Source: Stylophora pistillata (lineage: Eukaryota). From it: 64,000 nt of DNA. Numbering within the stretch: position 1 is the first letter of the stretch; each line of letters opens with the position of its first letter. Both the position numbers and the translations under genes were made by a program. Shown piece after piece: positions 60,161-60,736 of this stretch. The notes under the pieces are model-generated. The model saw nothing but the letters and a program-made list of their open reading frames with translations, did not search any database and was not told the origin of the DNA. The stretch lies in assembly GCF_002571385.2 (NCBI RefSeq), contig NW_019217850.1, positions 55,905 to 119,904 on the forward strand, read 5' to 3'.

Positions 60161-60736
60161 TTAGAGCATATAGCATCTCTTACGATCACGCTTCTTCAAA
60201 AGAGCAGCTCTTGCGGCCGTTTCAAATACATTTCTAACTCCTTCCATAGTTTTAGAGGAACACTCAAGGTAAACATGTCCATTAATTCGTTCACACATCG
60301 CACGCCCCTGTTCGCTTGTCACAGGAGACTGATTTAATTTCGCTAACGTTTCTTTAATCCCTTGGTCATCTCTAAGATCTTTCTTGTTCCCAACAATGAT
60401 TATCGGTGCTTTAGGACAGAACTGCGCTAGTTCAGGTGTCCATTTTTTGGCGATACTCTCCAAACTCTCTGGTCTTTCAATGGAAAAGCACATGACGACC
60501 ACATCTGTGTTAGGATATGCCAGAGGTCGAACTTTGTCGAAATCATCTTCTCCAACTGTATCGCAAAACTCAAGCTCTACTGTCGTGCCATCAACGCTGA
60601 GGTTAAAAATATCGTTTTCAACTGTTCGAGGCTTGTATCCTTCAGGGAATTTGCCAGCGGAGAAAGTCATCAAAAGGCAGGTCTTCCCGCATAAACCGTC
60701 ACCGACGATGACGAACTTTTTCCTAACTACCGACAT
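60161..60736 (-). CDS. Atypical RhoA-like GTPase (Rho-2), single coding exon
   Basis: GDGLCGKT, YKPRTVEND, CDTVGED, NKKD, SSK, polybasic tail and CAAX CYML. The 191-aa ORF is uninterrupted. Confidence 0.93.
   Translation of the reverse strand: MSVVRKKFVIVGDGLCGKTCLLMTFSAGKFPEGYKPRTVENDIFNLSVDGTTVELEFCDTVGEDDFDKVRPLAYPNTDVVVMCFSIERPESLESIAKKWTPELAQFCPKAPIIIVGNKKDLRDDQGIKETLAKLNQSPVTSEQGRAMCERINGHVYLECSSKTMEGVRNVFETAARAALLKKRDRKRCYML

Follow-up and report, generated by a model that had tools for sequence, protein, structure and literature searches.

The switch I threonine, T37 in RhoA, is retained in Rnd and RhoH and is the residue of Rho that is glucosylated by TcdA and TcdB. GEFs, GAPs, GDIs and effectors are described as sharing the switch surface (PMC8305018), and Rnd and RhoH as GTPase-deficient proteins without the Q61 equivalent (PMC8305018, PMC13236570) that are regulated by expression (PMC13236570). 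In RhoA, deamidation of Q63 is reported to block both intrinsic and GAP-stimulated hydrolysis (PMC3206620), and the T37A mutant is described as constitutively inactive: it binds effectors poorly, and both its hydrolysis and its binding of LARG are much reduced (PMC11339415). Several bacterial toxins act on the same surface: CNF acts on Q63 and C3 on N41 (PMC3206620), IbpA modifies Y34 (PMC8097203), and TcdA/B glucosylate Rho (PMC8084149). An initial annotation of the locus described here named T37 as a residue modified by VopS, in agreement with the reported switch I threonine target (PMC8097203), and took both CNF1 and DNT to deamidate Q63 and so block hydrolysis; DNT is reported to prefer transamidation to deamidation (PMC3206620). 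Lineage-specific Rho duplications have been reported in cnidarians (PMC7600811).

We analysed a 64,000-nucleotide stretch of the Stylophora pistillata genome (hereafter the window), in which the minus strand carries an atypical RhoA paralogue at 60161–60736. The open reading frame runs undisrupted from ATG to TAA, encodes 191 residues with no intron in the coding sequence and matches the Pfam Ras family (E 4.8e-40). Human RhoA residues 1–188 align to it without a gap (HMMER, E 6e-72), and identity to RhoA/B/C is 57–60%. The G1/P-loop (residues 12–19, GDGLCGKT, 60680–60703) is intact except for A15L, with G14 and K18 kept; the G4 motif NKKD (60377–60388) is intact; G5 reads SSK (A161S, 60251–60259), where the 73% identical orthologue P0021 retains SAK; and a CAAX box, CYML (60164–60175), follows a polybasic tail, so that prenylation is predicted from sequence. 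D59 and G62, the G5 lysine, the polybasic tail and the insert helix are also kept, and all of the motifs of a Ras-type G domain (G1, the G3 DxxG, G4 and G5) are present. The switches differ: the core of switch I (60623–60634, R37 codon 60626–60628) reads K35-P36-R37-T38 where RhoA has V-P-T-V, and switch II (60548–60556, E63 codon 60548–60550) reads V61-G62-E63 in place of A-G-Q. Both T37 (G2) and Q63, the marks of a canonical cycling RhoA, are thus replaced, by R37 and E63. Reading the codons gave L15, K35, R37 (CGA), T38, V39, D42, C58, V61, E63 (GAA), D64, F66 and S161, confirming every substitution that the initial annotation had listed from A15L to Q63E, Y66F and SAK to SSK, as well as its account of an intact P-loop (bar A15L), NKxD and CAAX in an uninterrupted frame. 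A 122-residue open reading frame on the plus strand (60396–60764) was rejected as the antisense frame of this gene.

An AlphaFold2 model built from a 95-row alignment had a mean pLDDT of 88 and superposed on RhoA (1kmq) with an rmsd of 1.1 Å in Foldseek; a single-sequence model (pLDDT 39) was set aside. The Rho insert helix is modelled at residues 125–133, where there is no gap against RhoA. Within the G domain, confidence is lowest in switch I (pLDDT 72); switch II reaches 75. Sequence and fold searches of the PDB both gave RhoA/B/C as the closest matches, and each of the 55 sequences reaching E ≤ 1e-55 was either RhoA/B/C or fungal Rho1, with no Rnd or RhoH among them. In trees, which were restricted to RhoA-type rows, the coral R37/E63 Rho nests among coral RhoA copies, and by its sequence it is a member of the RhoA subfamily by descent, not Rnd or RhoH.

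Transcription of the gene was assessed in sequencing runs, of which 20 of the 24 listed contain the stretch, including four recorded as RNA. Single contigs span the open reading frame in three poly(A) runs from three studies (X1, 59946–60790; X14, 59514–60772; X4, 60064–60885), with 57500–58102 and 61520–62524 left without cover. These contigs extend 12–125 bases beyond the splice acceptor; the transcripts are either unspliced at the 5'-UTR intron or begin elsewhere. A contig from a further run whose library type is not on record, X20, leaves the sequence at 60762 and resumes at 61705. This jump, together with a consensus GT donor and a pyrimidine-AG acceptor on the minus strand, defines a 942-nt GT-AG intron in the 5' UTR (60761–61702), 24 nt before the ATG, and demonstrates a spliced mRNA. 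The non-coding first exon lies at 61703–61815 on the minus strand, its far end being approximate as it comes from a 111-letter loose end, and 59514–60160 (minus strand) is the probable 3' UTR, covered together with the open reading frame by one 1260-nt RNA contig, although contigs give no strand. The gene was absent from the contigs of a fourth run, X21; the X21–X24 contigs hold only short pieces of canonical paralogues and are uninformative on absence. Lack of expression, which the initial annotation regarded as fatal to its reading, is thus contradicted by RNA contigs of three studies and one spliced contig. A repeat of about 100 bp within the 5'-UTR intron (60857–60956) also occurs in very many RNA contigs of all four of the runs X1, X4, X14 and X21.

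The gene lies in a tandem array. A search of the same genome found seven full-length RhoA-like open reading frames within about 29 kb (G000:C67:114681-143771), and tblastn over 110–160 kb, in which 1,914 N bases were unread, gave no further RhoA copy. All seven copies have an intronless coding sequence and a pyrimidine tract plus AG just upstream of the ATG, which points to tandem duplication of one gene structure. Three copies (L002, L003 and L004, the last 100% identical to P0152, PFX29361.1, from Stylophora pistillata) are canonical in their switches; in L005, L006 and L007, T37 and Q63 are retained and other positions changed; R37 together with E63 occurs only in the copy at 60161–60736. 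Its convergent neighbour is L006 (58777–59367, plus strand), a divergent RhoA paralogue with H34 and D42, and the start of its head-to-head neighbour L005, with H34 and T41, falls at 63945–64000 (plus strand). In both copies H34 stands where IbpA-type enzymes modify a tyrosine. On the plus strand an X14 contig leaves the sequence at 62717/62718, and the consensus splice donor at that point (62718) probably belongs to L005; it faces the first exon of the atypical gene head to head across about 0.9 kb, and the two genes may share a promoter. L007 (G000:C67:126125-126730) is a second atypical copy, with G14S, A15G, Y34F, A61L, G62A and a one-residue insertion after switch I, and is matched by a 13-member cluster, P0352. 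Two Stylophora records, P0316 (342 residues) and P0153 (322 residues), each combine pieces of adjacent Rho genes (L007 and L003 in the case of P0316) and look like gene-model fusions in the tandem array. Several coral genes bearing a plain Rho annotation are unlikely to act as ordinary switches, a point to bear in mind when coral transcriptomes are interpreted.

Other features of the window were noted in passing. Exons of metallo-beta-lactamase-fold genes (Pfam Lactamase_B_2) occur three times in tandem, at 14259–14831, 19593–20246 and 26464–27123, and resemble NAPE-PLD. Two identical inverted open reading frames of 112 residues (45654–45992, minus strand, and 46485–46823, plus strand) are GIY-YIG-like, at E 2.8e-4 and below the Pfam cut-off, and are probably fragments of a Penelope-like element. 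On the minus strand, an exon of a proteasome alpha-type subunit gene lies at 35306–35830, and a duplicated hydrophobic segment with no Pfam match (52768–53187 and 53852–54931) adjoins a stretch of N.

Three orthologue-like clusters at 90% were found, at 98% identity (P0003, 18 members), 86–87% (P0018, 263 members) and 73% (P0021, 2 members). The members listed were examined, 15 of P0003 (including the window's own protein), 15 of P0018 (one truncated) and both of P0021. L15, K35, R37, T38 and V61 are found in 31 of the 31 listed sequences that cover them, down to 73% identity, as is Y34, and E63 in 31 of 32, the exception being P0139 in the 86% cluster, which has Q63. Sixteen derived residues at near-invariant sites, among them A15L, V35K, T37R, V38T, A61V, Q63E, E64D and Y66F, are identical across the 98, 86 and 73% clusters. 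The open frame, the CAAX box and all G boxes persist in the 86 and 73% clusters, so the orthologue search that the initial annotation had called for found both residues conserved in intact proteins. Searches further afield gave no more orthologues. A scan of metagenomes (22 of 64 parts) matched at least 80 loci, none orthologous, with 63% the best identity among the matches listed; the switch II pattern was found in no stretch of viral contigs; no orthologue was found among 50% representatives, as expected if the orthologues cluster with canonical Rho; and a switch-region search with P0021, which depends on shared words, gave nothing beyond the three known clusters among 33 candidates.

Amino-acid differences between orthologues outside the switches avoid invariant sites (6/91 invariant versus 15/49 variable, p=0.0003; 16/91 versus 20/49, p=0.003, in a second comparison). 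Switch identity is no higher than elsewhere against P0021 (26/38 versus 104/140) and modestly higher against P0135 (36/38 versus 119/140). Against six paralogues dN/dS is 0.11–0.24, with dS of 1.3–2.8 near saturation and a ratio that averages both lineages. The initial annotation had held that a dN/dS near 1 would count against it; the values are far from this, as a comparison of paralogues rather than of orthologue DNA. Branch lengths indicate that the coral R37/E63 Rho evolves faster than the canonical copies, non-switch columns included, and 13 positions vary among the 15 members of its own cluster. Neither a disrupted frame, nor a missing transcript, nor neutral divergence was found for this gene. 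Since R37 and E63 are conserved, differences avoid invariant sites and dN/dS against paralogues is low, the sequences make a decaying pseudogene unlikely, though constraint looks looser than on the canonical copies.

Where the protein has changed is informative. With near-invariance set at 95%, 40 of 126 such positions are altered, 19 of 35 (54%) in the switch regions versus 21 of 91 elsewhere (Fisher p=0.001); Y34 and N41, which fall just below the threshold (94.5%), are unchanged. T37 is present in 111 and Q63 in 115 of the best 120 matches, so R37 and E63 are rare in relatives. Further out, among the best 150 50%-cluster representatives, T37 or Q63 is replaced in 39 of 147 aligned domains, and replacements of this kind appear common as such in divergent Rho-like proteins. 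Their frequency in unrelated divergent proteins fits an expressed copy that drifts under weak constraint after losing switch function, as do the long branches and the several amino-acid variants within the copy's own cluster. Against such drift stand the concentration of changes in the switches, the 16 shared derived residues, the differences that avoid invariant sites, and the frame, CAAX and G boxes that are intact at 86 and 73% identity, this last point being tempered by the fact that protein databases show intact frames only; we consider drift improbable.

The reading that we prefer, and to which we give about an even chance, is that this intact, spliced stony-coral duplicate of RhoA is a Rnd/RhoH-like Rho, predicted to be hydrolysis-deficient and to fit canonical effectors poorly, that signals to a partner of its own. 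RhoA was duplicated in tandem, three canonical copies remaining in place, and the divergent copy is predicted still to fold, to bind guanine nucleotide and to receive a prenyl group. E63, the loss of T37 and V61 would jointly block GTP hydrolysis, with or without GAP. K35/R37/T38/V39/D42 together with C58/F66 would form a new surface that should bind ROCK, formin and rhotekin-type effectors weakly and that may be conserved for binding its own partner; a Rnd/RhoH-like protein of this kind is the simplest account of the conservation of the new residues. Because GTP hydrolysis is predicted to be poor and the protein not to cycle, control is likely to be by expression and turnover, and the protein is likely to be permanently loaded and specific to corals. 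We infer this folded, membrane-anchored, nucleotide-bound, non-cycling state, with its poor fit to canonical partners, by combining results from single mutants. The initial annotation proposed a hydrolysis-dead Rho with a remodelled effector loop; the loop is indeed remodelled, and the gene is maintained and transcribed, while the hydrolysis deficiency is a prediction from single-mutant data.

If T38 took the place of T37 through a shift in register, the protein would instead be an always-active RhoA that works through canonical effectors, in effect a genetically encoded Q63E. The loop Y-K-P-R-T-V-E-N can be aligned as T-V moved by one, T38 is invariant in the 31 orthologue sequences, and Q63E alone is reported to be activating (PMC3206620). 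The AlphaFold2 model also lies nearest to activated RhoA Q63L, but this follows from the alignment that it was given, and switch I is where the model is least confident. The alignment to RhoA is ungapped, and relatives carry R37 with V38, H38 or Q38, so R37 does not need T38; F39V, Y42D, W58C and Y66F would alter the effector surface in any case. We therefore regard a shifted register as unlikely.

A hydrolysis-dead Rho can hold GAPs, and a non-signalling copy could titrate GAPs, GEFs or GDI and so tune the canonical Rho copies. The fold, prenylation signal and polybasic tail needed for such a sink are kept, and A61V and A161S may loosen nucleotide binding, RhoA A161P/V being reported as fast-cycling (PMC11339415). 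Yet GEFs, GAPs and GDIs bind the very switch surface that is remodelled here (PMC8305018), and the RhoA T37A–LARG complex is reported to be much reduced even in EDTA (PMC11339415), which makes the sink for GEFs suggested by the initial annotation doubtful and a regulator sink in general not a likely role.

The initial annotation drew its headline from the match to toxin target sites. Two of the four toxin-modified side chains are changed (T37 and Q63) while Y34 and N41 are kept, a loss no different from the 54% background of invariant switch positions and thus without a particular focus on T37 and Q63. On a 34-row tree, positions 34, 37, 41 and 63 change 4, 5, 8 and 4 times (21 in total), compared with a mean of 3.4 changes for 37 invariant switch sites; the resulting p=0.097, against sites drawn at random from the invariant switch positions, is driven by N41, and we take it as a lean and not a result. 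The switch works through T37 and Q63, which is why toxins strike there, and the match is best explained, on the sequences compared, by toxins and evolution both acting on those residues; as a headline, the match is not supported.

A host–pathogen origin, in which the paralogue or the whole array diversified to escape or sense Rho-modifying effectors of marine Vibrio, has nonetheless some circumstantial backing. The protein offers no T37 to AMPylate and no Q63 to deamidate, each of the four divergent array copies departs from the usual residue in at least one of positions 34, 37, 41 and 63, and Vibrio found around cnidarians do have effectors that modify Rho: V. proteolyticus, from diseased corals, is reported to secrete a CNF1-domain effector (PMC5666596), and the V. 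parahaemolyticus T3SS1, which carries VopS, to kill Exaiptasia (PMC12031060). Beyond the background-rate loss and the weak tree test, such an origin is opposed by the retention of Y34 and the CAAX box, and by R37 and E63 being static within the orthologue group rather than variable; a decoy would be expected to retain the effector-binding surface. A toxin-insensitive back-up, also suggested by the initial annotation, is unlikely since RhoA T37A is impaired in effector binding (PMC11339415) and a copy without T37 should signal badly. On balance, a host–pathogen origin seems to us improbable. Were the toxin link true, this would be a rare case in which a family of host genes has diversified at a conserved hub of effectors, which the present evidence does not show.

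A profile search extended the comparison to a Montipora-type group of 37 sequences, two of whose members are named as Montipora foliosa and M. capricornis. R37 is found in 31 of 37, D63 in 35 and V61 in all; T37 is lacking in 35, N41 is lost and Q63 lacking in all 37, as would suit an escape from toxins, and Y34 is kept throughout (37/37), which would not. R37 also occurs with Q63 in the coral-type paralogues P0037, P0059 and P0025, and A37 with E63 in P0023 (Oculina). That relatives carry R37 with V38 suggests that R37 came by substitution before T38; these combinations make it probable that R37 preceded both E63 and T38, and its origin may be ancient, or there may have been several. An all-column tree of 52 rows united these sequences and L007 in an 18-row clade at 99/86, with P0023 outside; after removal of the switch columns and 18 rows (34 rows left), the remaining 16 members still fell on one side of a branch, at 67/70. 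At that support a single origin of R37 with an acid at 63 across coral clades is neither shown nor rejected by the sequences. The boldest reading would make this combination an old, undescribed RhoA offshoot in stony corals of both major clades, hard-wiring the CNF-deamidated state, immune to modification of the switch I threonine and able to signal in spite of, or stand guard against, Vibrio effectors that target Rho; we hold this to be quite improbable.

Compared with known systems, the coral R37/E63 Rho is like RhoA/B/C in fold, insert helix, polybasic tail and CAAX box, and unlike them at 19 of 35 invariant switch positions, T37 and Q63 included. With CNF1/CNFY-deamidated RhoA it shares the identical residue, E63, here encoded by the gene (GAA); toxin-made Q63E leaves the effector loop intact and activates effectors, whereas the coral loop is rebuilt. 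PseudoGTPases such as AAGAB and the p190RhoGAP domains likewise combine a GTPase fold and a predicted loss of catalysis with a role as interaction module, and we assume that the coral protein would fall in the nucleotide-binding class ii. AAGAB is described as class i, without nucleotide binding and with its G motifs lost (PMC12490416), while the coral Rho keeps G1, G4 and G5 and its sequence lacks the degenerate G motifs of that class. Another cnidarian Rho-family protein, Exaiptasia pallida EpaRhoV, has XRX replacing XTX in G2, but it is placed in the RhoUV subfamily with a degenerate G1 and, by that description alone, is not an orthologue (PMC7600811). Searches of open-licence literature for coral and cnidarian Rho paralogues, PMC7600811 included, turned up neither the array nor these residues. 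Rnd1-3 and RhoH resemble the coral protein in having lost the catalytic glutamine naturally while keeping the motifs that bind nucleotide, and in the expression control that we predict for it. They are reported to lack the G12-equivalent glycine (PMC8305018), where the coral Rho retains G14, and the coral Rho has a separate origin within the RhoA subfamily, no G2 threonine and an acid at 63. Because it keeps G14 and has lost T37, the opposite of Rnd and RhoH, the analogy is partial, and its GTP-bound form may be an 'off'-like state. The gene appears to be an independent invention of a GTPase-deficient Rho from RhoA, with G14 kept, T37 changed to R and Q63 to an acid, and it offers a natural test of a Rho without the G2 threonine, for instance of whether R37 or a shifted T38 occupies the Mg/gamma-phosphate site.
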